Assembly (NCBI GenBank): GCA_027315065.1
Contig: DAHUYT010000004.1
Location: 803-64,802 of the forward strand
Direction: 5' to 3'
Length of the DNA stretch: 64,000 bases
Source of the DNA: Nitrososphaerota archaeon
GTDB lineage: Archaea; Thermoproteota; Nitrososphaeria; Nitrososphaerales; Nitrosopumilaceae
Shown: in pieces, positions 29,864 to 46,384 of the stretch
Numbering within the stretch: the first letter of the stretch is position 1
Layout: each line of letters opens with the position of its first letter
The notes under the pieces: model-generated
What the model saw: only the letters and a program-made list of their open reading frames with translations
What the model was told of the DNA's origin: nothing
Databases searched by the model: none
Program-made: the position numbers and the translations under genes

Positions 29864-30742
29864 GTGAAAAAAATAAAACAAAACAATAACGTACTGTTCT
29901 TCTTTGATGATTCGAAGAAATGGTTGATGAAAGTATCACGAAAACAGCAATTCCATACACATGTTGGAATTATTGATCATAAAAAAGTAATAGGTAAAGA
30001 ATATGGTAGCTCAATCAAGACCAATAAAGGTAAGATAATCTATCTTTTAGAACCCACCGTATATGATTATGTTATGAAAAGTCAGCGCAGCACTCAGATA
30101 GTGTATCCAAAAGATCTGGGTTACATAGCTGCAAGAACAGGATTGCAAAGTGGGCAAACAATTGTTGAAATTGGGACTGGGAGTGGTTCACTTACTACTT
30201 TTCTTGCCAGTATAGTAAAACCACGTGGTCATGTGTATACATATGACGTGGATGAAAACTTCATGGCAATAGCAAGGAAAAACATCGAAAAGGCTGGAAT
30301 TTCAAAACACGTCACAATGGAAAAGTTAGATATCAAAAACATCAAGAAAGTCCCACAAACGGATGTAGATATGGTGGTAGTAGATTTGGGGGATCCGTGG
30401 ACCGTAGTTCCACAAGCAAGAAAGATGCTCAAAGGAAGTGGATACTTTGTAGCAATATGCCCTACTATGAACCAACTTGAAAAACTTGCATCGGCGTTAC
30501 GCGAAAACGACTTTTTTGATATGGAGTTCACTGAACAGATTGTACGAACGATAGAGGCAAGGGAAGGAAAGACGCGTCACTCTTTCCGAGGTATTGGGCA
30601 CACTACATATGTTGCATTTGCTCGTAAAGTTACTACAAAAGATAGAAAAATAACCTCAAGTATAGAATCTGACAATATGTCTGATGAAGGGTCTGACGAA
30701 GAACCTGCTGAAGACGAAGGTTTATCCAGTGTAAAAAAATAA
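29864..30742 (+). CDS. trmI: tRNA (adenine-N1)-methyltransferase
   Basis: QIVYPKD, EIGTGSGSL, DLGDPW, GHTTY; acidic C-terminal tail. Confidence 0.9.
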   Translation: MKKIKQNNNVLFFFDDSKKWLMKVSRKQQFHTHVGIIDHKKVIGKEYGSSIKTNKGKIIYLLEPTVYDYVMKSQRSTQIVYPKDLGYIAARTGLQSGQTIVEIGTGSGSLTTFLASIVKPRGHVYTYDVDENFMAIARKNIEKAGISKHVTMEKLDIKNIKKVPQTDVDMVVVDLGDPWTVVPQARKMLKGSGYFVAICPTMNQLEKLASALRENDFFDMEFTEQIVRTIEAREGKTRHSFRGIGHTTYVAFARKVTTKDRKITSSIESDNMSDEGSDEEPAEDEGLSSVKK

Positions 30743-30747
30743 GGCAA

Positions 30748-31611
30748 TTGTTGTCCAAAATTCTACAGGCTACTGTTATCAAAAATTTTATCCCTCCACG
30801 AAAATCTTTGTCAAGAAAGGGAGAAAATGGAAAAGTGCTAGTTGTTGGAGGAGGTTATCTATATCACGGTGCTCCAATCCTTTCATCGCTAGCCGCACTT
30901 CGATCCGGAGCTGATCTAGTCTACACATGTGTACCTAAAACTCATGTGACGTCAACAAGAGCATATTCGCCAAATCTTATTGTAATTCCGCTGGTTGATG
31001 TAAAGCTTACAAGAGGCGCAGTTAGAAAGTTGGTTGGAATAATTCCAAAGGAACTTGATTCTGCGACTATCGGTATGGGACTTGGAATTCAAGATAGGGA
31101 AGCACTAAAGATGTTGGTAAAAGATCTACTTGACAGAACTGTTATGTTATCTCTTGACGCAAGTGCGCTTATACCTGAAATTCTTCCTGAAATTAAAGAT
31201 AAAAAAGTTGTAATCACTCCTCATGCTGGCGAATTCAAAAGATTGTTCGGTGAACTTCCTCCGTATAATGTAAAACAAAGAATTACATTGGTACAAAAAC
31301 ATGCAAGAAATAATGGCATAACTGTGCTACTCAAGGGTCCAACTGATATTATTTCAGATGGAATACAAACATTCTTGAATCCAAAAAATTTGGCATCGAT
31401 GACTGTGGGCGGTACAGGTGATGTTCTCTCTGGTATAGTAGCAGCAATGCTATCAAAGAACCGAAAACCTATAGAGGCTGCGTCTAGTGCTGTTTTTATA
31501 AATGGAAAAGCGGGTGTACTGGCACAAAAGAAAAATGGTTTGCATATCGTAGCAACAGATCTCTTAGATTTTATTCCGGTAGCAATGAAACCATTTGATC
31601 GAATAAAGTGA
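30748..31611 (+). CDS. nnrD: ADP-dependent NAD(P)H-hydrate dehydratase
   Basis: KGENG.VLVVGG, DASAL, TPHAGEF, GGTGDVLSG. Confidence 0.9.
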   Translation: MLSKILQATVIKNFIPPRKSLSRKGENGKVLVVGGGYLYHGAPILSSLAALRSGADLVYTCVPKTHVTSTRAYSPNLIVIPLVDVKLTRGAVRKLVGIIPKELDSATIGMGLGIQDREALKMLVKDLLDRTVMLSLDASALIPEILPEIKDKKVVITPHAGEFKRLFGELPPYNVKQRITLVQKHARNNGITVLLKGPTDIISDGIQTFLNPKNLASMTVGGTGDVLSGIVAAMLSKNRKPIEAASSAVFINGKAGVLAQKKNGLHIVATDLLDFIPVAMKPFDRIK

Positions 31612-31617
31612 TTTTGA

Positions 31618-32964
31618 ATGCAAGAACAATATGTAGACAAAAACATGCCTGCGTTAATTTCAGACTTGCAGAAATTAATTCAACAACCAAGCGTCTCTGC
31701 AAAAAATCTGGGGTTGGAAGAATGTGCAAGACTAGTGGTTAGAATAATGGAGCAGTCTGGAATCAAAGCAGAAATACTAAGACTAGGTAGAGATGTTCCA
31801 CCAGTAGTTTATGGAGAAGCCAAGTCAAAGAAAAAACCGCAAAAAACAATTCTATTTTATAATCATTATGATGTTCAACCCGAAGAGCCTCTTGAATTGT
31901 GGCACGATGAGCCATTTGGCGGCACGATAAGAGGTAACAAAATCTACGGCCGTGGTTCGGCTGACGATAAGGGTGAACTAATCACCAGAATTAAGGCAGT
32001 TGAGGCATTTATTAAAACAACTGGAGACGTACCGTGCAACATAAAATTTCTAGTTGAGGGCGAGGAAGAAATCGGGAGCGTGCATGTTGAGGCATATCTG
32101 AAAAGATATCAAAAGAGGTTATCATGCGATGGTGTAATCTGGGAATTTGGATACGTTGATGAAAAGAACAGGCCTATAATCAGTCTTGGTATGAAGGGTT
32201 TACTATATGTTGAACTTTCTGTACTAGAATCAATCCGTGACGCTCATTCTAGTCTGGCTGTATTAATTGAAAATCCAGCTTGGAGATTGATCGAAGCGTT
32301 AAAAACATTGCGTGACAAAAATGGCCTAATTCTCATTAAAGATTGGTACAGAGAAGTTGACAAGTTTACAAAAGAGGAACTTGATGTAATATCTCTTGAG
32401 AAATTTGATGAAAAGTCATTCAAAAAAGAATATGGTATAAAAAGACTTGTAGGAAATAAAAAAGGAATAGACATACAAAAGGCAATTGTAGGTGATCCTA
32501 CTTGTAACATAGCGGGATTCTCATCTGGGTGGGAAGGACCTGGAGCAAAAACAGTTTTACCGTCAAAGGCATTAGTAAAAATTGACTTTAGACTCGTTCC
32601 AAAAATGGATCCTCTAAAACAACTATCTAGACTAAAGATGCATCTTAAAGACAATGGATTTGGTGATATCAAAGTACAACTGATTCATGGCGAAGCAGCT
32701 TCCAGAACTAAAACATCTGATCCATTTGTAAAGATTGTAAAAAAGGCAGCAGACGAATCTTTTGGAACCTCAATAACGAGCATTTCGTCTTCTGGGACAG
32801 GACCCATGTATTCATTTTCCAAAGTGCTCAAGGCTCCCTGTATTTCAATCGGTAGTACATATGTCTATGCAAGAATCCACTCACCTAATGAATTTGCGAG
32901 AATAGATCTGCTAAAAAAGACAACAAAATGTATGTGTAAAATAATAGAAAAATTCAGTGCCTAG
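31618..32964 (+). CDS. M20-family metallopeptidase/deacylase
   Basis: HYDVQP, GRGSADDKG, EGEEE, HSPNE. Confidence 0.9.
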   Translation: MQEQYVDKNMPALISDLQKLIQQPSVSAKNLGLEECARLVVRIMEQSGIKAEILRLGRDVPPVVYGEAKSKKKPQKTILFYNHYDVQPEEPLELWHDEPFGGTIRGNKIYGRGSADDKGELITRIKAVEAFIKTTGDVPCNIKFLVEGEEEIGSVHVEAYLKRYQKRLSCDGVIWEFGYVDEKNRPIISLGMKGLLYVELSVLESIRDAHSSLAVLIENPAWRLIEALKTLRDKNGLILIKDWYREVDKFTKEELDVISLEKFDEKSFKKEYGIKRLVGNKKGIDIQKAIVGDPTCNIAGFSSGWEGPGAKTVLPSKALVKIDFRLVPKMDPLKQLSRLKMHLKDNGFGDIKVQLIHGEAASRTKTSDPFVKIVKKAADESFGTSITSISSSGTGPMYSFSKVLKAPCISIGSTYVYARIHSPNEFARIDLLKKTTKCMCKIIEKFSA

Positions 32965-33085
32965 CGATACTTGAGCCAGTTATTCTTTTGTATGCGGGTT
33001 GAGGAATATGATTTAGTAGCACAAGAATTCGGATCATAAGTGATTTAGAGAAAGGCCTTTATTGTGCTCATTTGGCAATCCAGTT

Positions 33086-33679
33086 ATGGCTTTTATGTAC
33101 ATGCCAGGTGCTACAGCAGTTGGAATAACCTATGATGAAGGCATAGTGCTGGCAAGCGAAAGAAGGATAGCTTATGGAAATTTTGTGGTAAGTAAAAATA
33201 CAAAGAAAACTTTCAAAATCACAGATTTTGTAGGTGCGTGCTGTGCAGGAATGGTCGCAGATATGCAGGTTTTGGCAATGCAGATGCGTGCACTGACAAA
33301 GATTAGAAAACTAGAGCTCAAAAGGGAGATTCCACCGAACTCTGTGGCTAAAATGATGTCATCTCTCATGTATGAAAGGCGATTCTATCCATTACTCACT
33401 CAGGTAATTGTTGGAGGTGTTGACGGTGAATCTGCAATTTATACGCTTGATCCGTTAGGTTCTGTTCTTCCAGATGATTATGCGGCAGTAGGAACAGGTG
33501 CAGAAATGGCATTGGGGGTATTGGATCAGGAATTCAAAAAAGGAATGAAGGAAAAAGATGCAGCAACACTTGCAATAAAGTCAATCAAGTCAGCTATAAT
33601 GCGAGATTCCGCAAGCGGTGATGGTATCGATGTGTTGGTTATTGATAAAAATGGGACCAGAGAATACACCGAAAACTAA
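33086..33679 (+). CDS. psmB: Proteasome beta subunit (probably non-catalytic paralogue)
   Basis: PGATAVG, ASERR, AGMVAD, GTG, RDSASG; ATG at 33086 preferred. Confidence 0.9.
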   Translation: MAFMYMPGATAVGITYDEGIVLASERRIAYGNFVVSKNTKKTFKITDFVGACCAGMVADMQVLAMQMRALTKIRKLELKREIPPNSVAKMMSSLMYERRFYPLLTQVIVGGVDGESAIYTLDPLGSVLPDDYAAVGTGAEMALGVLDQEFKKGMKEKDAATLAIKSIKSAIMRDSASGDGIDVLVIDKNGTREYTEN

Positions 33680-34156
33680 CTATTTTTTTATCATTTTTGC
33701 AGATTCCCAATATTTGTCTGAGACATAATGTAGATTCTTGATCACTTCACCTTTTGTGATGTTGGGCATCTCATCACTGGGTATGAGGGATTTTCCTATT
33801 GCGAGAAATTTATTGTGAGCTTCCTCTACAATGCATATGACCTGATCCTTTTGAAAGTCAGTATATTTTTTGATTCCTGGGCGCATGACATTTGCTCCAT
33901 TACATACAAACCTTATCGCACCTGCATCTACAGTGATTTTTGGAAATTTTTCAAGCAAGGTAGTTTCGGAAAGAAATGGAAGATATGTTTCACCATTTTT
34001 AATTGCCATGAATTTATCGCCTGTGATTATGGACGTTTCATCATCAATCTCGTATTTCACCAATGTTTTTATTTTTGGCAACTCTATTTTCCATTGGGAT
34101 GAAATTATCTCTAGAATCTCACTGCTTTCACTTTTAGATAGTGGATGAGATTTCAA
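33680..34156 (-). CDS. PUA-domain RNA-binding protein (DUF1947+PUA)
   Basis: VDAGAIRFVCNGANVMRPGI, LHYVSD..W. Confidence 0.88.
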   Translation of the reverse strand: MKSHPLSKSESSEILEIISSQWKIELPKIKTLVKYEIDDETSIITGDKFMAIKNGETYLPFLSETTLLEKFPKITVDAGAIRFVCNGANVMRPGIKKYTDFQKDQVICIVEEAHNKFLAIGKSLIPSDEMPNITKGEVIKNLHYVSDKYWESAKMIKK

Positions 34157-35166
34157 ACTCTAGACATTTCCTGTTTGATATCTAACAAGTCACGCAATAT
34201 GGAACTTGCAGTCTCCATGCCACCAGCACCTCGCCCAATTATGGTTTGCTGTCCTGAATGTTCTGAATTAAATGTAATTGCATTTAGTGTCCCATTGACA
34301 CAAAGTGGATCCTCCACCTGTATTTCTCTTGGTGATACCTCTAGGTCTCTATTGCATGATGCAATTAATTTGACTGCGGCATGATTAGCAACTGCCTTCT
34401 TAATATCTGAAATTGACACATCTCTAATACCTATTCGCTTGATGTCTTTGATGGTCACCTTCATATCCATTATCCAGTTTGCTAGTATTACAAGCTTGGC
34501 AGCCGCATCAAAGCCGTCAATATCCAATGACTCATCAGCCTCCACATATCCTTTCTTCTTTGCGTCCGCAAGCGCTATCTTAAACGTCATGCCGTCAGCC
34601 ATGTTTGTAAGAATGTAATTTGTTGTACCGTTTAGAATGCCTTGAAAAGAAACTATTCTTTCTCCTCTGAGGCTATTTTTTGCATAGTCTAGTATGGGAG
34701 TTCCTCCTCCAACAGTTCCGCTAAATTTTAATTGTACCTGATTGTATGTAGCCAATTCTATCAATGATGGGAAAGCAAGCGCCAGCGGACCCTTATTTAC
34801 TGTGATGATATGAAGGCCTTTTTTCATCGCAGTCACTATGTGCGACATGCCAGGTTCTGCATCCTTGTAATTACTCGGGGTAGTCTCAATTAAAACTTCA
34901 GCCTCCATTCCATTTATAATATCCATTCCATTTGCTTCTTTTTCCTTGTTGTGATACTTTCGTATGTTTCCGTATTTTTTCTTGACTTTTAGTAACCTGT
35001 TTAGATCAATGCCAGCAGAAGAAACAGCAGATCCTTTACGATCAAACACACCGACAATTCTAGGCTTTAATCCATGTTTTGCGTAAAGATCTTCAGATCT
35101 TGAAAGAAGAAGCTTTGCAAAACTTTGTCCTACTACACCAAAACCACACAATATTATACGCAACAT
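34153..35166 (-). CDS. hom: Homoserine dehydrogenase
   Basis: GFGVVG, TVNKGP, GGGTP, GILNGTTNYIL, GRGAG. Confidence 0.94.
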   Translation of the reverse strand: MLRIILCGFGVVGQSFAKLLLSRSEDLYAKHGLKPRIVGVFDRKGSAVSSAGIDLNRLLKVKKKYGNIRKYHNKEKEANGMDIINGMEAEVLIETTPSNYKDAEPGMSHIVTAMKKGLHIITVNKGPLALAFPSLIELATYNQVQLKFSGTVGGGTPILDYAKNSLRGERIVSFQGILNGTTNYILTNMADGMTFKIALADAKKKGYVEADESLDIDGFDAAAKLVILANWIMDMKVTIKDIKRIGIRDVSISDIKKAVANHAAVKLIASCNRDLEVSPREIQVEDPLCVNGTLNAITFNSEHSGQQTIIGRGAGGMETASSILRDLLDIKQEMSRV

Positions 35167-35237
35167 TCACAAGACACATGTTGGGATTAATTAAGATTCA
35201 TCAATTCTGAGATTCCTTTATTAAAGCTTGAAAAACT

Positions 35238-35903
35238 TTGGATACTGTGAAATCTAAAAAATATGCCTACATTGGAATCGCGACAGCTAGTATTGTAGTT
35301 GTAGTTGTGTTTTTCACTCAATTCAATATAATGCAGACAGGATCAAATGTACAATCAGGAATATCTGCATATACTTTGGATTTCACTTACGCTGAAGTAA
35401 ATTCAAATTTGAAAAGTTCCCTGATAGAGCAGCACATAAACATGTCAAAACCTTTGGAGTTTAGTACTCCATCGGATATTCGTCAGTATTGTAATTTTCT
35501 TTCTAACCAGACAAAACAATCTATGATTGAACATTGTACTTCAACAGAACTGAAAGACGAACATAATAATTTTCTTGGAAATATTAACATGGTGGGGTCC
35601 TCTCTATCTCCAGTATTGGTGATTGCGGCAGCACAATCCGATCCGATATTTAGTAACTATAATGACATAAAAATTCTATTTGGAGATGTTGTCAATGAAA
35701 CCATATGTCAATGCTGGGCTAAGGAAAAACCGGGAGGATACTCTACATTATCCGATATGATGAACGCACTTCGTGACTTTCATTTAAAAGGAAAAGAGCC
35801 TAATAGCACCACTCGCGGTATACCATTAAGCGGAAAACACTTTGAAATAGAATTGACTACAAACAATCAAGGCTATCTTTGGAAATTACTTATAGCCAAG
35901 TAA
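35238..35903 (+). CDS. Membrane-anchored hypothetical exported protein
   Basis: N-terminal TM; Cys-containing soluble domain. Confidence 0.7.
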   Translation: MDTVKSKKYAYIGIATASIVVVVVFFTQFNIMQTGSNVQSGISAYTLDFTYAEVNSNLKSSLIEQHINMSKPLEFSTPSDIRQYCNFLSNQTKQSMIEHCTSTELKDEHNNFLGNINMVGSSLSPVLVIAAAQSDPIFSNYNDIKILFGDVVNETICQCWAKEKPGGYSTLSDMMNALRDFHLKGKEPNSTTRGIPLSGKHFEIELTTNNQGYLWKLLIAK

Positions 35904-35963
35904 TATGTCTATACTCAGGTTCATTAAGCTTGACGTGCTCACTTAACCTACGGAAATTTCAAT

Positions 35964-36743
35964 TTGGTGTTAGCATTGCTTGAATATCTATGGCTAATAC
36001 CGCTTGGTTTTGTTGCTGGTATAATAGGATCAATGATCGGTCTTGGTGGAGGATTTATTATTGTCCCAGCCTTGACTTTTGCTGGATTTCAGCCTACTCT
36101 TGCGGCAAGCGATAGCCTCTTTGCTGCATTTTGTAACGCCGTAGCGTCAACACTATCTTATGCTAGGCAAAAACGAATTGTATATTCTCTAGGACTAAAA
36201 CTGGCATTGCTTTCCATTCCGGGGACAGTACTTGGGGCCTATATCTCTGACGAAATATCAGCATCTACATTCAAGTTATTGTTTGGTATGGTGTTAGTTG
36301 CTTCCAGTGTCTACATTTACTCTAGAAGAAAGATGGAACCTAAAGAACATAATCTCTCAAAACAGCTTGTAATACTCATAATAGGAGCTAGCTTCTTTGC
36401 AGGTATAATTTCAAGCCTATTTGGAATTGGGGGAGGCACCGTCTTTGTTCCTCTCATGATCGTGGCAATAGGGCTGTCCATGAAACTAGCTGCACCCACA
36501 TCGCAATTCATATTGATGTTTGCAGCAGCATCGGGAATGATCGTTCATTCTCTATTGGGACATCCTGACTATGCTCAAGCTGGTTTATTGTCAATAGGTG
36601 CATTTGCTGGAGGAATTGCTGGAAGCAAAATATCATTAAGAGTAGACGAAAGAAAACTAAAGATATTTGTCACGCTAGTACTTGTTATAACATCGATCAA
36701 ACTTTTTATGGATGCTTTTAATATCTCAGTTAAAATACCGTGA
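35964..36743 (+). CDS. TauE/SafE-family sulfite exporter-like membrane protein
   Basis: Duplicated GLGGG/GIGGG..VP motifs; about 8 TM segments. Confidence 0.85.
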   Translation: MVLALLEYLWLIPLGFVAGIIGSMIGLGGGFIIVPALTFAGFQPTLAASDSLFAAFCNAVASTLSYARQKRIVYSLGLKLALLSIPGTVLGAYISDEISASTFKLLFGMVLVASSVYIYSRRKMEPKEHNLSKQLVILIIGASFFAGIISSLFGIGGGTVFVPLMIVAIGLSMKLAAPTSQFILMFAAASGMIVHSLLGHPDYAQAGLLSIGAFAGGIAGSKISLRVDERKLKIFVTLVLVITSIKLFMDAFNISVKIP

Positions 36744-36778
36744 CGACAATATGGAAAATTCTTACTAGATGTTTTCAT

Positions 36779-37243
36779 TTATTTTTGGGATGGTGGTTCC
36801 TTTCTAATTTGGTAAAGGTTTCTTTTAGATAAAAGAACAAGATCATTATCATCTTTTGTTCCCTCAAAATCAATTGATAGTAGACCAAATTCATCATTAA
36901 GATCGCGCTTGCCAACTATCTTAAATTTGATTCTTAATTTTTCATCTGTATGGAGAGGCTTGAGAAATCTAGTTTGTCTGTTATTCCAATCTAGATCTCC
37001 GTCTATGCCGTAGAAAATCAAAAGATTCCCGTACATTTCTTCAAGCCTTGTAAACTCACCTTCTATTCTTGATAATATGGCCCTGCCGGAAACCATTTCG
37101 CTATGCTGGTGTGAGAGTCCTCTCTTTTCATAAATTATGTTTTTTATTCCAGAAAAGGAAAGATATTTGTCAAGATCCTCGGGGGAAATCTTACATTCTG
37201 AAAAAAACTCATCTCCAACTTTGAATTCAGAGAATTTTTTCAT
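36779..37243 (-). CDS. Hotdog-fold (MaoC-like) protein
   Basis: FSEFKVGD, F.KPL..DE, C-terminal strands; 4-nt overlap with the upstream SDR. Confidence 0.68.
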   Translation of the reverse strand: MKKFSEFKVGDEFFSECKISPEDLDKYLSFSGIKNIIYEKRGLSHQHSEMVSGRAILSRIEGEFTRLEEMYGNLLIFYGIDGDLDWNNRQTRFLKPLHTDEKLRIKFKIVGKRDLNDEFGLLSIDFEGTKDDNDLVLLSKRNLYQIRKEPPSQK

Positions 37244-39036
37244 TGAGATCTTGTTTCATCAGGATAGTAAATCACTTCTGAGTTTGTAACTGCTTTTTCA
37301 GATTTGAAGAAATTCACTGCATTTAGGATTTTTGAGTTGTCTGACTCGATACCGTCCACGCTTCCGGGGAGAATCAACTGTATTCTGATTCTTGACTTGA
37401 GAACATCGCTTAGTTCTTGATTAATCGTCGTAACAAAAGGTCTTAGTGCTCCTCGAAATATCTCTATCTGTGTTCTGTCTCTGCCTGTTGTCTTGCTACC
37501 AGATGGCATATCTGGACCGATTATTATTATGTGTCCTTCCTTTTCCTTGAAAAGAGGAGGATTTTTTGCTCCACCTGGAACAAATCTGTTAAGGACTTCT
37601 TGTAGGACGAGGGCTGGGGTGTCTATGAATTTGTCTACCAGCATGTCCCATTGCTGCCTTGACAACTCTGTAATCTTTGGGATTTGAGGTAATTTACCAG
37701 TTACATAAATCACTACATTAATCGGTCCTATCTTTTGGGTGGCAGTGTTTAGCATTCTTCTCATGTTTTCTTGGCTGTTGATATCCATGACATGAGAATG
37801 GAACTTGGATAATTGTTCTTCAGCATGTTTGATACTTGTCTTTGAAATCAAAATTACTGTTTTTCCTCCATTACTCTCGATATTTTGTGCAAGATATTCA
37901 ACTCTTGATACATCTGATTCTTCTGTGGTATCTACTACAAACAAAACCACTTCTGAGTTATACTCTGGCTTGGTTTCTGGTATTGAGCAAGCTATGTGAG
38001 GTTTAACGGGGTAGAATACTCTGTCTCCGGGAATTACTTTGCCATTTAGAATTTTTGATATATTTTCATCGCATAGCATAAGAACAATTTCGGCTACTTG
38101 TTGCTGTGACAAGAACTGTTCGTCTGCAATCATCTTGCTAGTGTTGGTTTGAATCTTTTCTGCAATCTGTTGTATCTTGGTCAAAAGAGAAGTAACAGTA
38201 CTGTAAAGTTTTTGAATTTCTGGTTCAGACGTTATTGATTTTGTCTTTGCTATTTTGGATACTGCTTGCTTCACTCCATTCTTTACTGTGTTCTCATCCT
38301 CACCTAGTAATGGAATGATATCGTTATTGACTGACTCTACTTCTTCTGAGGTTAGATTTTCAAAACCACTGACTCGCATAAACTCTGCCGCTGCTTTTGG
38401 ATAGACCGTTTTGTATATTCTGTCAGAATGAACTGGTCCTGGATTAGTAGCAATTGATATTATTCCTTTATCTGTAAGATCCCATGACATTGCCTCTGCA
38501 AGTCTATTCTTTGCTCCTTGAGATGCCGTGTATGGACTTCTAAATCTGTATGGTCTCTGTTCAAATGGACGTTCTTCCGTAAAGAAAGTGGATATTGTTA
38601 TAATCTTACATCCTGATTTCATGGCTTTGATTGCCTGTGCTGAAGTCCAGAAGGTACCGGTGAGATGAATGCCAACCGTACTCTTAAAATCATTCATTGG
38701 TGAATTTGAAAAACATGTTACTGGACCTGAAACCCCCGCATTATTTACTAAAATATCCACGGTTCCATGGGATTTCTTCAAATCTTCAAACATTTGAGAA
38801 ACTCCTACCTCATCACTAACGTCAATACCTGGGAAAATTTTCACAAATGCGCCGCTTTTAACTTTGTCAATTATGGTTTGTAATTCTTTTGCAGCTTCTT
38901 CGAGCGGCTCCTTTCTTCTTCCTAAAATAACTATGCTTGCACCGTTTTCGGCAAACTTGATCGCTATCGCTTTTCCGATTCCAGTGCCACTACCAGTGAT
39001 AACTGCCAGCTTATCTTGAAACTTTAACATTAACAA
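37240..39036 (-). CDS. Two-domain short-chain dehydrogenase/reductase (malonyl-CoA-reductase-like architecture)
   Basis: TGSGTGIG, GRR, NNAG, YTASQ, NPGPV; second degenerate Rossmann domain. Confidence 0.85.
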   Translation of the reverse strand: MLMLKFQDKLAVITGSGTGIGKAIAIKFAENGASIVILGRRKEPLEEAAKELQTIIDKVKSGAFVKIFPGIDVSDEVGVSQMFEDLKKSHGTVDILVNNAGVSGPVTCFSNSPMNDFKSTVGIHLTGTFWTSAQAIKAMKSGCKIITISTFFTEERPFEQRPYRFRSPYTASQGAKNRLAEAMSWDLTDKGIISIATNPGPVHSDRIYKTVYPKAAAEFMRVSGFENLTSEEVESVNNDIIPLLGEDENTVKNGVKQAVSKIAKTKSITSEPEIQKLYSTVTSLLTKIQQIAEKIQTNTSKMIADEQFLSQQQVAEIVLMLCDENISKILNGKVIPGDRVFYPVKPHIACSIPETKPEYNSEVVLFVVDTTEESDVSRVEYLAQNIESNGGKTVILISKTSIKHAEEQLSKFHSHVMDINSQENMRRMLNTATQKIGPINVVIYVTGKLPQIPKITELSRQQWDMLVDKFIDTPALVLQEVLNRFVPGGAKNPPLFKEKEGHIIIIGPDMPSGSKTTGRDRTQIEIFRGALRPFVTTINQELSDVLKSRIRIQLILPGSVDGIESDNSKILNAVNFFKSEKAVTNSEVIYYPDETRSQ

Positions 39037-39208
39037 AATTTGGCGCCTTTTGGACTATTTATTCGATTGTGCCGTGTGATTTGTGTGATTCCTTGATATT
39101 TTTACGAATGTTACAGTTTTCTACCTATAAACGGCGGATCTAATATGGTATTATGTTTGTATCAAAATCATCATTGAATTGAATGAAAATTCATCAAAAA
39201 GTATTTAC

Positions 39209-39787
39209 TCAAATCCACATGCCGCCCAAGCCACCATAACCAAAGCCACCATAGCCCATACCATACATCCCCATCCCTCCACCACCGAGCATTCCCATCA
39301 TGAGTAGGTTTGATGATAAACCTGACTGATCTTGAGACTGGTGTAACTGCTGATGTTGCTTTAACTCTTCATCTGATTTGAAGAGCAATCCATCTAGGTG
39401 ACATATCTTCAATGAAGGATCTATCTTGCTGACTATTTGCTCCCATATTTTCTCCTCAAACTTGTGGGCAGAATGCAGATCGGCTGCAGTAGCTATGCCT
39501 AGCGTAGCAACACCTTCTATGGCTGGAATGGCTAGATCTCGTCCCCAAATGCCAGCGTGTAATTGAACTTCAAATTTCCCCTTTGTACCTGCCACTATGA
39601 CATCCACATCTCTTACTCTTCCCATTACTATTCTTTCAATGTTTGATTTTCTTGCATGCATATCTAATAATCCATCTTTTGGATCCTCTGCAACGATCTT
39701 GAATCCTTGAGATTGCAGAATCTCTTTGATATGTGAATAAACATCCTTAGGATCTATATCTTTTTCAACGAATCCATGTTTTCGCAT
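39209..39787 (-). CDS. Hypothetical protein with C2H2-like finger and Gly/Met-rich tail
   Basis: C-x2-D-x3-F-x5-L-x2-H-x3-H at 39403-39341; tail GMLGGGGMGMYGMGYGGFGYGGLGGMWI. Confidence 0.72.
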   Translation of the reverse strand: MRKHGFVEKDIDPKDVYSHIKEILQSQGFKIVAEDPKDGLLDMHARKSNIERIVMGRVRDVDVIVAGTKGKFEVQLHAGIWGRDLAIPAIEGVATLGIATAADLHSAHKFEEKIWEQIVSKIDPSLKICHLDGLLFKSDEELKQHQQLHQSQDQSGLSSNLLMMGMLGGGGMGMYGMGYGGFGYGGLGGMWI

Positions 39788-39875
39788 TTCTTCTCTAGAT
39801 GACAGCGATCTTCTTCCAACTAATAAGTCTGGTGATCATTCTCATCGTTCCGTGTCCTAGATGTCATAAAGAGGC

Positions 39876-40160
39876 GGTTCTGCTAACTTATCGAGACCTG
39901 TCATTACAATCATTTCCCGATTATCAACTTGCTTCCATCTACTCCGAGGATTAGTGGCTGCAAGTTATCCACATTCCCCTTCATCGCTTCACCTGAAATC
40001 CCTCCAGGATGGCAAAACCTACTCCACCCCTTGTGCGCAATGTTCATGGACGCAACGACGTCGCGGTCCATTGATCTGCCACAATTAATGCACAATAATT
40101 TACGTCTGTGAAACCTGTCCTCTTGGAGTCTATCTCCGCATATTGAATAGAGTCTTAATG
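39876..40160 (-). mobile_element. tnpB: 3' remnant of an IS200/IS605-family tnpB with putative right end/omega-RNA region
   Basis: Frame reads YSICGDRL...RKLLCINCGRSMDRDVVASMNIA (TnpB zinc ribbon plus DRDxxAxxNI); in-frame TGA just upstream; no RuvC-I/II or tnpA. Confidence 0.75.
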
Positions 40161-40197
40161 TGTAATATTTATTTGTGGGTCAGATTCAACTTGACGT

Positions 40198-40434
40198 ATG
40201 CACGATTCCGAACCTGATACATTTGAGCAAAAAAACAAGCAAAAAGAATACTGTGAACTGTTAGAAAAAATTGGGATAAACGCAGAACCAAAGCAATTTG
40301 AAACTGACGAAGTTGAAAAAAGCGATTATTATTCAAAGTACTTCTCACATTCTCCTGTCATGGTTACAAATCATGGTTGTATAGATCTCAAAGACAGTAA
40401 CATCGACGTTATTCAAATAATCCAGAAGGGTTAA
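40198..40434 (+). CDS. Hypothetical protein
   Basis: 78-aa ORF, 1 nt before the next ORF. Confidence 0.55.
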   Translation: MHDSEPDTFEQKNKQKEYCELLEKIGINAEPKQFETDEVEKSDYYSKYFSHSPVMVTNHGCIDLKDSNIDVIQIIQKG

Positions 40435-40435
40435 A

Positions 40436-40816
40436 ATGTTACAAGATCTAAATCCATTACCCTGGGGAGCACAGGATAGATTTCAAGCACACTTTATTGT
40501 CAAAACTCAAAATCAACTTGACACTGATGATCTTCTTGCCAAAACAAAACTAAATACCAAAGGGCACTTTTCTACAAAGAAAGTATTGGGAGTAGAATGG
40601 ATTGGAGGAGAACTTGCCGCCTCTCTAAATTCTGACGAGGAACTCAAAAACATGATTCTGAAGCTTCCATATCGGGATGCGTTAATTTGGGTAGAGCCAA
40701 CCAAGAAAGGAATCCGGATTCACGGTAAATGGAAAAGTAGCCAGGAATTGGGGATTACAAAAGAACTATTTGAGATCTATGACAGAATAGCTGCTCATAT
40801 AAAAAAACACCTCTAA
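40436..40816 (+). CDS. Hypothetical protein
   Basis: 126-aa ORF with normal composition. Confidence 0.7.
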   Translation: MLQDLNPLPWGAQDRFQAHFIVKTQNQLDTDDLLAKTKLNTKGHFSTKKVLGVEWIGGELAASLNSDEELKNMILKLPYRDALIWVEPTKKGIRIHGKWKSSQELGITKELFEIYDRIAAHIKKHL

Positions 40817-41346
40817 GCTTTCCACCAATCAAGTGCTAGACAATCAATCTTATTTCCTTTTGGAATTGCAAGGATGAATTGTTTTCGAACAGTTGTGGCC
40901 AGCCTTCCTGCTAAAACAACTTCTGTTGCAGATATTGTATCTGTGGAATTGTAAACCTGTATCAAATATGGTGCATGATCTATACCTGGACCTTTTTGAT
41001 AAACTGCAAAATCACAACCAAATTTGATTCCAGGATTTACAATATATCCTTTATCTCTGAAATCTTTGTAGATCTGATATTTCTTGTCGAAGTTGTGGTG
41101 TTCGCGTCTACATATTTCCAGCATTTCGTTTAAAGCAACTTTTTTTTTAGCCTGATATATATTCAATTTTGATTTTTCCAGAAGATAATATCCTTCTATG
41201 AGATCCAAAATCAATGGTACACTAATCTCCTCAGGTTTTGGTTTTGTAATTCCTATTGGTTTTCCATAATATCCATTGATAAACAATGACTTTGATTCTT
41301 CCAGATTCCATATTATTATTCTATTCTCGATTAATTCTCCTTCCAA
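40813..41346 (-). CDS. endA: tRNA-intron endonuclease
   Basis: YKDFRDKGY, GIKFGCDFAVY, HAPYL, LATTVRK. Confidence 0.92.
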   Translation of the reverse strand: MEGELIENRIIIWNLEESKSLFINGYYGKPIGITKPKPEEISVPLILDLIEGYYLLEKSKLNIYQAKKKVALNEMLEICRREHHNFDKKYQIYKDFRDKGYIVNPGIKFGCDFAVYQKGPGIDHAPYLIQVYNSTDTISATEVVLAGRLATTVRKQFILAIPKGNKIDCLALDWWKA

Positions 41347-41423
41347 GTATCTCTTTCACTAATGAGGTAATTGATTTTAGTGTTTACAAAACGTTAGTAA
41401 AAAAAGAAGATGATTTTACTATT

Positions 41424-42077
41424 TTATAGGCTAAGCGCTAGCAGAATGAACGAATCTGATACCTGAAGGCATTTGTCCGACATTTCCTCTATGCCTTCCA
41501 CCACATCTTTTAGAAGCATTAGTTCCTTTGTAGTTGTGACCTCATCTAAGACCTTTATGGTTAATGAGCGATATTTTTCGTCTACCATTCTTTCCATCTT
41601 TTGTGCTTCATGTGCAAGATCGATTGCAACTGTAGCGTTACCGCCCATTGCACGAACAATTTCGTTTATCTTGTAAATCTGGTCTACTGCCTGCTCAATC
41701 AATTCGGATAGATCTTTCTCTATTTTTTCCTTCTTTAGTGTGGCTCCCTTTATGTTTGATAACTTGAAGGCTATGCCTGTAATGTAGCCAGCTATCTCAT
41801 CCATTGTGTATGCTGTATTTAACAGATTTTCCCGGTTCATCATAAGTCCTCCCACATCTGCTATTTCGCGAGTTATTTTCCTGCGCAAAGCCTCCACTTC
41901 ATCCTCTGTATTTTTTATTCTCTCAAGAACCTGTTTTACCTCTGCCTTGTCAGCCTTGATTATTAACTCTGGAAGTGATGAAAGGTCCCTCACTGCGTTA
42001 AGGATCCTGTTTATTTCATCCTGTAAAACGGCAAGTGCCTTTCTCTTTGCCTGAACTTCAAGTTCTCCGCTATACAT
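41424..42077 (-). CDS. DUF47/PhoU-like helical protein
   Basis: E.E.EALRRKI, D.IA, ERMVDEKYR, EEMSDKC pattern. Confidence 0.8.
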   Translation of the reverse strand: MYSGELEVQAKRKALAVLQDEINRILNAVRDLSSLPELIIKADKAEVKQVLERIKNTEDEVEALRRKITREIADVGGLMMNRENLLNTAYTMDEIAGYITGIAFKLSNIKGATLKKEKIEKDLSELIEQAVDQIYKINEIVRAMGGNATVAIDLAHEAQKMERMVDEKYRSLTIKVLDEVTTTKELMLLKDVVEGIEEMSDKCLQVSDSFILLALSL

Positions 42078-42137
42078 CTAGACGTTTAGTTCTATGCCAG
42101 CAGCTAATAATCCTTACGTAGAGAGCTTTTGATCAAA

Positions 42138-43913
42138 TTAACCTTTGTTCAACTGTCTTTCATCTTGCACTACTTTCTTTTGGCTATTGTACATGGTAAT
42201 AATCTCGCTCACAGAAGTAGAGTTTTCTGGAGTTTTTTCAAACCTGATCTTTCCAGTAAATTTAGGAAAGCGCAAGGCAAGACCACTACCCTTTCGTATC
42301 TTGTCTAAAGCTGCCTTATGAATGGGGCTCAATGTGATCTCAGAAGCCACTACTTCGATCACAACTTCTGGCTCGAACCATACGTCTGCTTCAAGCCCAC
42401 TGTCAACTCTGGGATCTTTCTTGATCCTGATTTTATCTGATAATATCTGATAAAATTGATCCAAACTTTCATCTGTAAATCCGGTTCCGACTTTACAGAT
42501 ACTGGGATAATTATCTACTTCATCGTCATATATTGACAAGAGTAATGCGCCATATCGGCCAGTTCTCCGGCCACGACCATAAAATGCACCTACTACAACC
42601 AAATCTAGAGAATCGCCTAACTCATTTCTATATTCGCGTTTTAGCTTGAGCCAATTACTTGCCCTGGCACCAGCTCTGTATGGTGAATCCAGATGTTTGA
42701 GCATGAGTCCCTCGCAACCAGAGTTAATGGCGTTTTCCAGAAAATCTTCAACCTCGTCATTTGTTTTGACTAACATCATGGGTATAACTTTAACAAACAA
42801 ATCTTCGTTTACAATATTTTCAAGCATACGTCGTCGTTCCTTGTATGGTGTATCTAAACAGCTTTTACCATCCACAAATATTATGTCAAAGAAATTGACT
42901 GTTATGGGATATTCTTGCACAGCCTTTACTATGTTGTATTTCCTTCTTCGATGCATAAGCTCTTGAAAAGGTAAAAACTCTCCCGTGTCTTCATTTATCG
43001 CTACTATTTCCGCCTCCAATATCACTTCGTCAGCATTTAATGATTTTCCAATCTTCTCCACAATATCAGGATAATAATTGGTAATGTTCTCAAGACTCCT
43101 AGAATAAAGAACGATCTTGTCTTTTTGCATATGGAGTTGAACCCGTTCACCATCAAGTTTGTATTCTGCAGCAAACTCCGCCTCTATTTTCTCGCGAGCC
43201 TCCTGTGCACTCTTTACTCTTTCAGCAAGCATGGGACGAATTGGACTGAAAACCGATACTTGGAAACCCCTCAGCGAATTAATTCCGTCTTTTGCAACGG
43301 CTTCTGCAACCCTACCCAAATCACTACAAACATTGTACGCATGTTCTAATAGATGTCTATTCTCTTTTGAACCTGTAAATGCAATAGACAACGCATCAAG
43401 AATGGTATAATCGGCTACTCCTAATCGCAGATTGGCAGTAATTATTTTTACGATGAATCTTCCTTCTGTAGGACTAGCGTCATTTAATAGACTAGAGATA
43501 TATTTCATTTTCATGTTTTGAGATTTATTTCCCCTTAGTGACGATATCTTGAATAAAGTGTCATAAACCCTCTCTACGGTAATATCTTCCTTGAGAAAAG
43601 TTGTTTGTGTTTTTTGCTCCAATATGTTGGCAGTAGCCTGTCCAAAATCCCCGACTTTTTTGTACTCATGTTCTATCTTCGATGCTGGAACTCCTGTGGA
43701 TTTTGACAGTGCCACAATTACAGTTTTTTCAGCAACTCCAATTTCCACTCCTTCATGTTCAGGTCTCAATTTACCTTGAAGCAAATATGTCACCTTTGAA
43801 ATTATTTCAGATGGGGTGATCTTAAATAAATCCACTAAATGTTGAGTCAACTCCAGTCGTTTAGTAGTGCCGCCCATGTATCCCAGAGTATCAGCTACCA
43901 CTGAAAACTTCAT
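42138..43913 (-). CDS. lig: ATP-dependent DNA ligase
   Basis: EYKLDGER adenylation motif, EGLMLK, WLKLK, LRFPKF. Confidence 0.96.
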   Translation of the reverse strand: MKFSVVADTLGYMGGTTKRLELTQHLVDLFKITPSEIISKVTYLLQGKLRPEHEGVEIGVAEKTVIVALSKSTGVPASKIEHEYKKVGDFGQATANILEQKTQTTFLKEDITVERVYDTLFKISSLRGNKSQNMKMKYISSLLNDASPTEGRFIVKIITANLRLGVADYTILDALSIAFTGSKENRHLLEHAYNVCSDLGRVAEAVAKDGINSLRGFQVSVFSPIRPMLAERVKSAQEAREKIEAEFAAEYKLDGERVQLHMQKDKIVLYSRSLENITNYYPDIVEKIGKSLNADEVILEAEIVAINEDTGEFLPFQELMHRRRKYNIVKAVQEYPITVNFFDIIFVDGKSCLDTPYKERRRMLENIVNEDLFVKVIPMMLVKTNDEVEDFLENAINSGCEGLMLKHLDSPYRAGARASNWLKLKREYRNELGDSLDLVVVGAFYGRGRRTGRYGALLLSIYDDEVDNYPSICKVGTGFTDESLDQFYQILSDKIRIKKDPRVDSGLEADVWFEPEVVIEVVASEITLSPIHKAALDKIRKGSGLALRFPKFTGKIRFEKTPENSTSVSEIITMYNSQKKVVQDERQLNKG

Positions 43914-43949
43914 TGAATATTTCTACAAACTGTAGGATAAAAGGTTGAG

Positions 43950-44252
43950 TTATTTTATGTGTAAATGTGTCTTGATTTTTAATCGTATTTCAGGAGTTCT
44001 TTTCAAAATGATGCTGTGAAAGTCTGAGGACTCTTCAAAATCTAAATATCTCTTGTTCCTCTGTAGAAATCCATCAAAGAAAACCCCACAGATATATCCA
44101 ATATAAATTCCATATGCAAAGTCTTCAAGGTTAGATGCTATGTCTAAGGACTTGGATTCAGCCAAAACCATTTTGGGATAATCCAACGCATATGTTATAA
44201 TGTCGTTGAGATTTTTTTCCTCGATCACATCTATGCCCATATGAGTGCCCAA
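43950..44252 (-). CDS. Hypothetical protein
   Basis: 100-aa ORF between ligase and S25e. Confidence 0.6.
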   Translation of the reverse strand: MGTHMGIDVIEEKNLNDIITYALDYPKMVLAESKSLDIASNLEDFAYGIYIGYICGVFFDGFLQRNKRYLDFEESSDFHSIILKRTPEIRLKIKTHLHIK

Positions 44253-44355
44253 ATTTAGCTTGTATTTAGAACTTTTGGAATTTAGGGTGAGGTCTCTAGA
44301 TTATCAGGAATAGAAATTCTCGTTCGTTTATAAATAGGAAATAGAAATCTCGATT

Positions 44356-44664
44356 ATGGGTGGAGCAAAGAAAAAGTCCCCGGCACAAGCAGAAAAGTCT
44401 CAGACTTCTGAAGCCGCGAAGAAAGATGGTTCAAAAAAAGACAAGAAAGAACAGAAACAAAGAACAAACGTTTCTGTAATAATAGATGAAGGGCAGGCTA
44501 TGAATTTTATAAAAAGTTCTAAGGTCTTCACCGTACAAGAACTGTCTAGACAAACAAATGTCAAGGTGTCGGCAGCAAACACGTATCTGCTAAACTTGTT
44601 AAAACAGGGATCAATAAAGAGAATAGGCGGATATAGTGGACATCATATCTATGTGCCGTCCTGA
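44356..44664 (+). CDS. rps25e: 30S ribosomal protein S25e
   Basis: MGGAKKK basic N-terminus, wHTH core; TTTATAAA about 22 nt upstream. Confidence 0.85.
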   Translation: MGGAKKKSPAQAEKSQTSEAAKKDGSKKDKKEQKQRTNVSVIIDEGQAMNFIKSSKVFTVQELSRQTNVKVSAANTYLLNLLKQGSIKRIGGYSGHHIYVPS

Positions 44665-45035
44665 GATATAGAAAATATATCGCCCGGTTTAATTTCTCTT
44701 AATGCTTCCAAGTTTGATGTTATTTTGCCAATGAGTGTCATAAGTTTGGTGGAAGTGACATCTTCTAAAAAGAAACAAATTGAACCATTCGATGCCATAA
44801 ATCCCACGTCGCCCTTTTTGAATTGCGTTCTGAGTTTTTCGCCACCTGTCGTAAGAGACGTATCCATGAATGCAATGGAATTGCCAATCATGTGTGAATT
44901 ACCCTCTAGTGGTAATGCTCTTAGTATGGAACCAACAGTTTTTGACGCCAGGTGACGTTTTAACTCAAATCTAATCTGTGCCTTTCCTCTCAATGCTAGT
45001 GTTAGATCAATCCTGGATACTGATCCGGCACTCAT
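44649..45035 (-). CDS. Cyclophilin-like fold protein (DUF369-like)
   Basis: TV.SILRALP, GDVGF...GSICFF. Confidence 0.75.
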   Translation of the reverse strand: MSAGSVSRIDLTLALRGKAQIRFELKRHLASKTVGSILRALPLEGNSHMIGNSIAFMDTSLTTGGEKLRTQFKKGDVGFMASNGSICFFLEDVTSTKLMTLIGKITSNLEALREIKPGDIFSISQDGT

Positions 45036-45087
45036 TTTTGAACGAGAGTATTATGAAATATATAACGTTTCTTACCGTTTTATCTTA

Positions 45088-45594
45088 ATGTCTGAGGAAC
45101 CTGAGGAAGTTAGTGTAGATACTGAAGAGGTTCCAACAGAGGAAGAGCCTGTAGAATCCATTTTACCACGAGAGGCAGAATCCGTAGAAGTTGTACCTGA
45201 TGATGGCGAAGAAAAGCCAGTAATTAAGAGAGGGAAAAAGGAACTTTCACCAGAAGAACTTGCAGAACAAGAAAGACTGCAAAAAATCATTGCTGCAAGA
45301 GAAATTATTGAGGTAGATCCAATACATATTTCAATAGAATATGAAACTGTGGGGAAAGGTAAAATTATGATTGGTCCTCCTACACTTACACGCTTTGAAA
45401 AAGCTAGAATTCTTGGAGCAAGAGCATTACAACTTTCTCTCGGTGCGCCGCCATTCATTCCGGTGCCTAAAGAGGTCGCAACATCACTTGATTTAGCTTA
45501 CAATGAGCTGGAAAAACGAGTTATTCCAATTACAATAAGGCGTGTATTACCAAATGGTGATTTTCAGAATATACCAATTGATCTCTTCGATTAA
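45088..45594 (+). CDS. rpo6: RNA polymerase subunit Rpo6 (K) with long acidic N-terminus
   Basis: LTRFEKARILGARALQLSLGAP, IPITIRR.LP. Confidence 0.93.
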   Translation: MSEEPEEVSVDTEEVPTEEEPVESILPREAESVEVVPDDGEEKPVIKRGKKELSPEELAEQERLQKIIAAREIIEVDPIHISIEYETVGKGKIMIGPPTLTRFEKARILGARALQLSLGAPPFIPVPKEVATSLDLAYNELEKRVIPITIRRVLPNGDFQNIPIDLFD

Positions 45595-45650
45595 TGGATG
45601 ATTTGTCGATAAGATTTTAATAGAATGTATAATTTGGTTTTTAGTAGATC

Positions 45651-45971
45651 TTGTTGAGTGGAATCGAGGAAAATATGCAACTAAATGACATGCCATCCTG
45701 CTCAAAAGATGGAAAATTGATCACAATTAATCAACAACCCATAATGGAATGTGCTCTTGATATTTTAACAGAATTGATAAAATATGGTACTGTGACTCTC
45801 AAGGCTAGGGGGGATTCAATCCCTACTGCTGTGGCTGTGGCAAACGTGATAACTGAAAACATGGTTAAAGGTAATTCTAAGATATCTGATATCGTAGTAG
45901 ATAGCGAGAACCATGAAAATCAAGGTCCACTTGTATCAATAATTGAAATAACTATAACCAAAACAAATTAA
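45651..45971 (+). CDS. Alba-family nucleic-acid-binding protein (divergent)
   Basis: LKARGDSIPTAV, SIIEITI. Confidence 0.75.
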   Translation: MLSGIEENMQLNDMPSCSKDGKLITINQQPIMECALDILTELIKYGTVTLKARGDSIPTAVAVANVITENMVKGNSKISDIVVDSENHENQGPLVSIIEITITKTN

Positions 45972-46384
45972 AAATTACTTCTTGGACCTTGGAGGAGCAT
46001 GTTTTCACATTCCTTGCATATTGCCTCGTCTATGTTTGATTCCAGCTTGTGATGTATGTCACAGATCAAAAGGCTTGATTTTATGTAATTGCAGAGGCCT
46101 ATGAATTTTGAAAGACTAGAAGGTGTATATGCCATGTTAGACGCTAAATTGTTACAAATATCCCTTATCATGTTTGATACCTCTTTAACTGCAAGGAGCT
46201 TGTGAATGAGTTCGGGATCACCTCTAGTTCCTCTAACATAATTACTAATTGCAGCTTGGGTCACTCCCAACATCTTTGAAACCTCCTCTTCACGTATTTT
46301 GTGATCCTCTATGAGTTTTTTAGCCAAGATGGCTCTCAATGCAGGAATTAGTGTCTTTGTTTCAATTTCGGCGGGCAAAAGCAT
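45968..46384 (-). CDS. HTH transcriptional regulator with Cys/His metal site (COG2522-like)
   Basis: LLP.EIE...IPALRA, LGVTQAAISNY, C..H...C..C. Confidence 0.8.
   Translation of the reverse strand: MLLPAEIETKTLIPALRAILAKKLIEDHKIREEEVSKMLGVTQAAISNYVRGTRGDPELIHKLLAVKEVSNMIRDICNNLASNMAYTPSSLSKFIGLCNYIKSSLLICDIHHKLESNIDEAICKECENMLLQGPRSNF

Follow-up and report, generated by a model that had tools for sequence, protein, structure and literature searches.

A single-module relative of Chloroflexus-type malonyl-CoA reductase, conserved in ammonia-oxidizing archaea, as a candidate for a missing reductase of carbon fixation

A 64,000-nucleotide stretch of a Nitrososphaerota genome (assembly GCA_027315065.1, contig DAHUYT010000004.1; hereafter the window) encodes a two-domain short-chain dehydrogenase/reductase (SDR) at 37240-39036 on the minus strand, which securely belongs to the superfamily of the Chloroflexus-type malonyl-CoA reductase (MCR). 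The bifunctional MCR consists of MCR-N, the malonic semialdehyde reductase (SDR1 and SDR2), and MCR-C, the malonyl-CoA-reducing half (SDR3 and SDR4), and the window protein is best seen as a lineage of its own with a single module, about equally distant from both halves. [quoted passage not shown] By analogy with MCR-C, we tentatively propose that, in the thaumarchaeal 3-hydroxypropionate/4-hydroxybutyrate (HP/HB) cycle, the protein serves as the NADPH-dependent reductase of malonyl-CoA (possibly succinyl-CoA), an assignment to which we give a little less than an even chance.

Fold, domain layout and distribution of the family

Structural likeness to MCR extends over the whole chain of the window SDR. 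The bifunctional MCRs of Chloroflexus and Roseiflexus rank first in a phmmer search against the PDB (E=2e-35), with residues 8-210 of the window protein aligned to each of their two catalytic SDRs (residue numbers follow the 598-aa open reading frame [ORF]). An AlphaFold model from a 96-sequence alignment of Nitrosopumilales and Nitrososphaerales reached a pLDDT of 89.5 and a pTM of 0.90, and it replaced a first model from 37 sequences of at least 72% identity, which had a pLDDT of 69.5 and a poor catalytic domain. The best 25 Foldseek matches of the model in the PDB are all Chloroflexus-type MCRs, aligned over the whole chain (E 8e-27 to 4e-20), and generic single-domain SDRs appear only from E 1e-14 with a TM score of 0.35. 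The MCR halves (TM 0.67-0.73) are the sole full-length structural relatives found in the PDB. The sequence-only reading that drew attention to the gene had proposed homology to the catalytic SDR plus degenerate SDR module of the Chloroflexus enzyme, and had named unrelated SDRs as the best structural hits to be expected if it was mistaken; the structural matches bear out the homology. An MFE-2-like system, i.e., a (3R)-hydroxyacyl-CoA dehydrogenase working with a hydratase, was also considered, prompted by a match to 2et6 and by a hotdog-like neighboring gene. It was rejected as the primary reading, as 2et6 covers the generic SDR core only, the neighbor lacks hydratase residues, and MCR is the sole full-length structural match.

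In the model, a catalytic Rossmann domain is followed by a four-helix insert (about 100 residues), the end of the SDR core and a second Rossmann domain that lacks the glycine-rich loop, as the sequence-only reading had anticipated for the insert and the second domain. The catalytic classical-SDR domain (residues 5-212; 38401-39024, on the minus strand as are all parts of the gene) is delimited by Pfam, residue mapping and the model. Pfam PF00106 (adh_short) covers residues 9-205 (E=1e-43; 149.4 bits vs a cut-off of 26.6), the Pfam scan gave no match for residues 210-598, and NCBIfam yielded only sub-threshold generic SDR matches. All Pfam and NCBIfam matches are thus of the SDR type, and none is to the semialdehyde dehydrogenase domains of the Sulfolobales-type MCR. 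The four-helix insertion, here called the lid (residues ~205-306; 38119-38424), is defined by the helices of the model and by conservation; it sits between the PGP loop and the final catalytic-SDR segment and carries an invariant R221 and a conserved IAEKIQxNTSKMI helix. The C-terminal segment of the catalytic core (residues 307-345, EQFLSQQQVAEIVLML...GDRVFYPV; 38002-38118) aligns to both MCR halves with hhalign. The degenerate pseudo-SDR Rossmann domain (residues 360-598; 37243-37959), recognized by AlphaFold, Foldseek and hhalign, has no Gly-rich loop (its beta-1 is followed by DTTEESD) and no catalytic Tyr/Lys, and it holds an invariant FRGALRP motif. The single disordered stretch of the model is the active-site loop at residues 150-160.

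The tandem of a catalytic and a non-catalytic SDR in one chain, which marks the MCR superfamily, is therefore present in the window protein. The bifunctional four-SDR architecture of about 1220 aa is not: the protein is a single 596-aa module with unrelated flanking genes, and a search for a second copy of the module in the window found none. The protein probably forms a homodimer.

The family is widespread and very conserved in both major AOA orders, in line with the sequence-only expectation that it would be found across AOA genomes. At least 540 GTDB species genomes encode it. The best 80 loci all come from AOA (Nitrosotalea, Nitrosopumilus, Nitrosarchaeum, Nitrosotenuis and Nitrosopelagicus), and the family is also found in Nitrososphaerales, including Nitrososphaera gargensis Ga9.2, with 49-63% identity between Nitrosopumilales and Nitrososphaerales proteins. 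The closest homologs of the window SDR (84-94% identical) are in Nitrosotalea metagenome-assembled genomes, and the window itself comes from a Nitrosotalea-like AOA. Databases name the family only "SDR family oxidoreductase" or "glucose/ribitol dehydrogenase."

Outside AOA the C-terminal region has few relatives, some of which are parts of fusion proteins. An exhaustive search with residues 215-598 retrieved 92 proteins among 1.84 billion representatives. Non-AOA relatives carry the signatures RPY..R..Y..AQ and NPGP....RI..VYP and form a clade with the AOA proteins at 98.5% bootstrap. These "Q-module" proteins comprise P0202 (1137 aa), P0162 (5945 aa; JGI), P0136 (5572 aa; NCBI), P0164 (1465 aa) and P0165, a Thermomicrobiales fragment, and most of them have the AOA-type lid and pseudo-SDR. 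In P0202, P0162 and P0136 the Q module is joined to one or two MCR-N-like SDR modules, which have the SDR1 spacing and YxxxK and score nearer to MCR-N; this arrangement suggests that the Q module may add a complementary, consecutive acyl-CoA-reducing activity. The giant proteins differ from the AOA SDR in being fused also to unrelated enzymes, e.g., a phosphoenolpyruvate (PEP) carboxykinase-like region. P0162 also holds phosphohexomutase-, alanine dehydrogenase-, GTP-dependent PEP carboxykinase- and flavin oxidoreductase-like regions. P0162 and P0136, each of which contains a whole AOA-type Q module, may be genuine multi-enzyme proteins or the product of fused gene calls.

Active-site residues and the two halves of MCR

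The window SDR retains residues that mutagenesis has shown to be essential in MCR-C. Full-length MCR genes were recovered from metagenomes with a C. aurantiacus MCR segment as the query, and experimentally studied residues (PMC10470521; bioRxiv 10.1101/2023.03.21.533589) were mapped onto the AOA family; invariance was scored on the 96-sequence alignment of both AOA orders unless stated otherwise. Mutagenesis identified Y731, R734, Y737 and R773 of the C. aurantiacus enzyme (Cau), which correspond to Y743, R746, Y749 and R785 of the Roseiflexus enzyme (Rfx), as essential residues of MCR-C (Zhang et al. 2023, PMC10470521; Kabasakal et al. 2023, bioRxiv 10.1101/2023.03.21.533589). Their equivalents in the AOA family are Y163, R166, Y169 and R206, all invariant. 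The malonate-binding motif Y743-x-x-R746-x-x-Y749 of Rfx thus maps to Y163-R166-Y169, with R166 and Y169 also matching R175 and Y178 of SDR1, and the essential loop Arg (Cau R773, Rfx R785; R215 in SDR1 of Rfx) maps to R206 by both HMMER and hhalign. The NADP 2'-phosphate Arg of both MCR halves maps to R40, and the catalytic Ser/Thr (Rfx S731) maps to T150; both are invariant. Rfx R799 in the lid and R1164 in SDR4 coordinate malonyl-CoA (PMC10470521). In alignment regions of low confidence, these two positions map to V222, next to the invariant R221, and to I550, next to R551, which all 37 Nitrosopumilales-type sequences share and which is the majority residue over both orders.

The motifs quoted in the sequence-only reading, like the 598-aa ORF itself, were all found in place. 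The dinucleotide-binding motif TGSGTGIG (residues 14-21; 38974-38997) is invariant in the family alignments and is followed by GRR (residues 39-41) and NNAG (residues 98-101). The active-site segment S149-T150...Y163-x-x-R166-x-x-Y169-x-x-x-Q173 (38518-38592) contains STFFTEERPFEQRPYRFRSPY (residues 149-169) and YTASQ (residues 169-173), and combines the MCR-type YxxRxxY with Gln at the lysine position of YxxxK. The catalytic Ser-Tyr-Lys of classical SDRs is therefore incomplete: Rfx K753 maps to Q173 within Y169-T-A-S-Q173, and Gln occupies this position in 96/96 sequences from both AOA orders. The NPGPVHSDRI loop (residues 198-207; 38416-38445) carries R206, and FRGALRPFVTTINQE lies in the pseudo-SDR (residues 527-541). 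The MCR strings that had been named as counterparts, PGCDVSSE, GTVDYLINNAG, PYPNRADY and FIKTTLHAFTATIGVE, do occur in C. aurantiacus MCR (residues 636-643, 658-668, 730-737 and 1136-1151), and HMMER and hhalign pair them with the AOA strings as proposed.

MCR-C (C. aurantiacus Caur_2614 residues ~550-1219, R. castenholzii and P. dokdonensis; PDB 8a30, 8hi5 and 6k8s) resembles the AOA SDR in its order of catalytic SDR, helical insert and non-catalytic SDR, and in its NADPH-type site, YxxRxxY, catalytic Tyr, essential loop Arg and similar Ser/Thr-to-Tyr loop length. Foldseek matches it with E 8e-27 and TM 0.73. The features that resemble MCR-C only are the large helical insert at the lid position and the long Ser/Thr-to-Tyr loop, which has 19 residues in the AOA protein vs 18 in SDR3 and 13 in SDR1. 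However, identity to MCR-C is only about 30% and restricted to the first 210 residues; the AOA lid has about 100 aa vs about 150 aa in MCR-C, at the same topological position; and the AOA SDR is free-standing at 596 aa with Gln for the YxxxK Lys, whereas MCR-C is half of a 1220-aa bifunctional enzyme. The AOA pseudo-SDR is not detectably nearer to SDR4 of MCR-C. MCR-N (PDB 8aew, 8hi6 and 6k8v) shares the catalytic and pseudo-SDR, Thr at the Ser/Thr position, YxxRxxY and PGPxxSxRI, and differs in its 13-residue loop, its insert of about 40 aa without a lid and its canonical YxxxK. Among the MCR-N-specific features, Thr alone is matched by the AOA protein, which has the 19-residue loop, the helical insert of about 100 aa and Gln in place of the Lys.

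Candidate role in the HP/HB cycle and its alternatives

The AOA malonyl-CoA reductase is a vacant step in the pathway map. A 2018 metabolic model (PMC6038301) lists the malonyl-CoA, acryloyl-CoA, succinyl-CoA and succinic semialdehyde reductases of Nitrosopumilus maritimus without genes, their activities having been measured in extracts. Papers from 2020-2021, including PMC7845616, still give no gene for the AOA malonyl-CoA reductase, and a marker resource from 2026 offers no marker for this enzyme in the thaumarchaeal HP/HB variant. The statement in the sequence-only reading that no such gene had been identified biochemically thus agrees with the searchable literature up to that resource. Its caveat that orthologs might already have been proposed was also apt: Hallam et al. 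2006 (PMC1403158) tentatively proposed a Cenarchaeum SDR with 32% identity to MCR in its N-terminal domain as a candidate, and this protein is very probably an ortholog of the window SDR. The idea is therefore two decades old and not entirely new; what is new is the single-module form, which combines a Tyr-x3-Gln site with a lid of its own.

A plausible but indirect case for an acyl-CoA reductase comes from the position of the insert, the MCR-C-like loop length, the fusions with MCR-N-like modules, the translationally coupled hotdog-like neighbor and the vacant pathway step. Because homology is not closer to MCR-C, the functional proposal rests on this context and architecture. The reaction would be the CoA-acylating reduction of malonyl-CoA to malonic semialdehyde, and the enzyme may also convert succinyl-CoA to succinic semialdehyde; substrate, direction and the part played by each residue are modeled on MCR-C. 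NADPH would bind in the N-terminal Rossmann fold at TGSGTGIG, with R40/R41 on its 2'-phosphate. Y163, R166 and Y169 would hold the free carboxylate of the substrate, and T150/S149 with Y169 would polarize the thioester carbonyl. Hydride transfer would then lead to a hemithioacetal, with R166 as the putative general acid. R206, whose mobile loop lies at the lid's base, may close the active site and aid CoA release, and Q173 would replace the YxxxK lysine in the hydrogen bond to the nicotinamide ribose. The aldehyde would next be reduced by a separate enzyme; the family of the N. maritimus malonic semialdehyde reductase is one that we take to be unrelated to the SDR.

Several observations weigh against this assignment. 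The sequence-only reading had seen a specific likeness to the malonyl-CoA-reducing half, which did not hold up: in sequence and profile comparisons, MCR-N scores as high as MCR-C or slightly higher. BLASTP gives 30.2% identity and 87.0 bits to MCR-N vs 30.0% and 84.7 bits to MCR-C, and hhalign scores are 188 vs 178 over the full length and 182 (SDR1) vs 172 (SDR3) for the catalytic domain. The pseudo-SDR is nearer to SDR2 (score 41, 73% probability) than to SDR4 (25, 5% probability), and a sub-profile hhalign comparison of the helical insert with the MCR-C lid detected no homology (1.6% probability). Query-normalized Foldseek TM scores are 0.69-0.73 for MCR-C vs 0.67-0.71 for MCR-N. SDR1 and SDR3 are mutually closer (hhalign 203) than either is to the AOA domain, and a neighbor-joining tree, whose "generic SDR" outgroup is biased in having been collected with an SDR3 fragment, does not settle the placement relative to SDR1 and SDR3 (deep nodes at 39-45% bootstrap). 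The Q module of P0202 has no long insert. Neither the N. gargensis locus nor the deep-branching P0122 locus has the hotdog partner, and no HP/HB-cycle genes cluster with the SDR in the window. The lysine that is essential in RfxMCR, where K753A abolishes activity (Zhang et al. 2023, PMC10470521), is Gln in all family members. This change may be tolerated by analogy with CaMCR-C, because its K741 is described solely as a hydrogen-bond partner of the nicotinamide ribose and an Arg is proposed as the catalytic acid (Kabasakal et al. 2023). Another candidate for the same step, the aspartate-semialdehyde dehydrogenase homolog NTE_03113, comes from Zhalnina et al. 2014. Finally, the candidate has been visible since 2006 without confirmation in the searchable literature, in which no paper reports a biochemical test of the AOA SDR family; this silence may mean that it was untested or that it was tested with a negative result.

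Some of these observations would also fit an NADPH oxidoreductase acting on another carboxylated metabolite or acyl-thioester outside the HP/HB cycle, e.g., in cofactor or lipid metabolism, with another protein, such as the aspartate-semialdehyde dehydrogenase homolog, as the true AOA malonyl-CoA reductase. We consider this unlikely, while granting it real weight: the Lys-to-Gln clade stands apart with its 98.5% bootstrap, its bacterial members sit in giant multi-enzyme proteins, linkage to HP/HB genes is lacking, NTE_03113 has been put forward for the step, and 20 years have passed without published confirmation in the searchable literature. However, conservation covers exactly those residues with which MCR binds and turns over the malonyl moiety, hardly any relatives of the C-terminal region were found outside AOA (the 92 matches above), and the very strong conservation is typical of a core enzyme.

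The near-equal scores to MCR-N bear on another possibility, namely an MCR-N-like alcohol dehydrogenase that reduces a semialdehyde, such as a succinic semialdehyde reductase or a second malonic semialdehyde/3-hydroxypropionate dehydrogenase, in which YxxRxxY would hold the carboxylate of a small acid. MCR-N scores are equal or slightly higher in BLASTP and in the full-length, catalytic-domain and pseudo-SDR comparisons, T150 is Thr as in SDR1, YxxRxxY and the loop Arg occur in both MCR halves (PMC10470521), and the succinic semialdehyde reductase of N. maritimus is likewise listed without a gene (PMC6038301). Yet MCR-N has neither the large helical insert nor the 19-residue loop, the MCR-N-like modules of the fusions would be redundant beside a Q module, and the hotdog-like partner points to thioester substrates. 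In addition, the malonic semialdehyde reductase of N. maritimus is already assigned to another enzyme, according to a passage of PMC12794621 that cites Otte et al. 2015. We judge this role distinctly improbable. The loss of the YxxxK lysine in all members and the inactivity of K753A RfxMCR might suggest an SDR-like protein without catalysis, structural or regulatory in its role, but such a protein is very hard to reconcile with an NADPH-binding motif, NNAG, T150, Y169, R166 and R206 that are invariant across orders, as expected of an active enzyme, and with a CaMCR-C lysine described as a ribose ligand only.

The malonyl-CoA reductase assignment can be stated more broadly, as a proposal that we hold somewhat more loosely still: the AOA-wide family may be the long-missing malonyl-CoA (perhaps succinyl-CoA) reductase, an ancient single-module relative of MCR with Arg-centered catalysis and a Tyr-x3-Gln site, perhaps working in Nitrosopumilales with a small, catalytically degenerate hotdog protein. 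The Sulfolobales malonyl-CoA/succinyl-CoA reductase (aspartate-semialdehyde dehydrogenase family, K15017) has no homology to the AOA SDR and would catalyze the same reaction in the crenarchaeal form of the cycle. If the AOA assignment is right, the malonyl-CoA reductase step was thus recruited independently in two archaeal lineages, as has been reported for other HP/HB-cycle enzymes (PMC7845616).

A conserved, single-copy MCR-related enzyme is a directly testable candidate for the malonyl-CoA, possibly also the succinyl-CoA, reductase. If it were confirmed, the map of the thaumarchaeal HP/HB pathway would be completed and a proper genomic marker gained, and the most abundant marine chemoautotrophs and Chloroflexus would draw on a common enzyme stock for a signature reduction of CO2 fixation, which bears on whether the archaeal and bacterial 3-hydroxypropionate pathways have a common ancestry at this step. 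The bacterial fusions of a Q module with an MCR-N-like module would then be an unrecognized second type of bifunctional MCR, and a compact, mesophilic 596-aa malonyl-CoA reductase with an unusual Tyr-x3-Gln site would join the toolbox for 3-hydroxypropionate production. If it were refuted, the family would stay an AOA-defining enzyme worth solving.

Gene start, hotdog-like partner and neighboring genes

The SDR gene probably starts downstream of the mechanically called ORF start. The ORF at 37240-39036 on the minus strand encodes 598 aa when counted from a TTG (39028-39036), two codons 5' of an ATG at 39030. We prefer the ATG at residue 3, which gives a coding sequence of 37240-39030 and 596 aa, because homologs are 595 aa long and begin with MLKF and because of the spacing to a TATA-box-like element (AATAAATA; 39056-39063, minus strand) 26 nt 5' of the ATG. 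The position of this putative element suggests a leaderless or short-leader transcript. A promoter and terminator scan relied on bacterial models, which are uninformative for an archaeal host.

The SDR gene overlaps the start of a 154-aa ORF (36779-37243, minus strand) at an ATGA stop/start, from which the two appear to be translationally coupled. The 154-aa ORF encodes a divergent candidate MaoC-like hotdog protein, the hotdog being a fold that binds acyl-CoA, and lies directly downstream of the SDR in 76 of the 80 Nitrosopumilales loci. Its family profile has weak matches to MaoC-like 1q6w (E=5e-4) and then MaoC-like 4ffu (0.18), and Pfam MaoC_dehydratas weakly matches 1 of 21 family members (0.015). 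The position of the hydratase-2 motif reads FSGIKNIIY and has no catalytic Asp or His. The gene seems to be a Nitrosopumilales addition and a non-obligate partner, because neither the N. gargensis nor the P0122 locus has it. In N. gargensis, the two small ORFs 5' of the SDR were compared as possible hotdog counterparts and are not homologous.

The wider gene order around the SDR is conserved in a distant locus. The order in the window from 29864 to 46384 is kept in L162, the P0122 locus, where the SDR is only 49% identical: DNA ligase, PhoU-like protein, tRNA-splicing endonuclease, SDR, homoserine dehydrogenase, PUA protein, proteasome subunit, carbohydrate kinase and GCD14 methyltransferase. 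The insertions that set the window apart from L162 are the hotdog gene and a gene for a TauE/SafE-family membrane protein (35964-36743, plus strand; 6862-7632 in L160). The latter is convergent to the SDR or the SDR-hotdog unit and is found beside it in 72 of the 80 Nitrosopumilales loci and in N. gargensis, but not at the P0122 locus. Just upstream of the SDR, on the same strand, a 192-aa ORF (39209-39787, minus strand) ends in a Gly/Met/Tyr-rich tail (GMLGGGGMGMYGMGYGGFGYGGLGGMWI); it has no family match, and tblastn against related loci found no conservation.

Two further features lie at a distance from the SDR. Rfam and tRNA scans across the 64-kb window gave no matches. The GC content of the window is about 37%, with a local rise to 0.454 vs about 0.37 that is due to a 467-aa ORF (22632-24035, plus strand) in which collagen-like Gly-X-Y triplets (GDK/GPQ/GPP) span about 300 residues; such a repeat protein is unusual in an AOA genome. 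At 18759-21361 (plus strand), a 601-aa sulfite/nitrite reductase-like ORF overlaps a 269-aa tandem-rhodanese-sulfurtransferase-like ORF by 13 nt, and the two may form a sulfur-assimilation pair.

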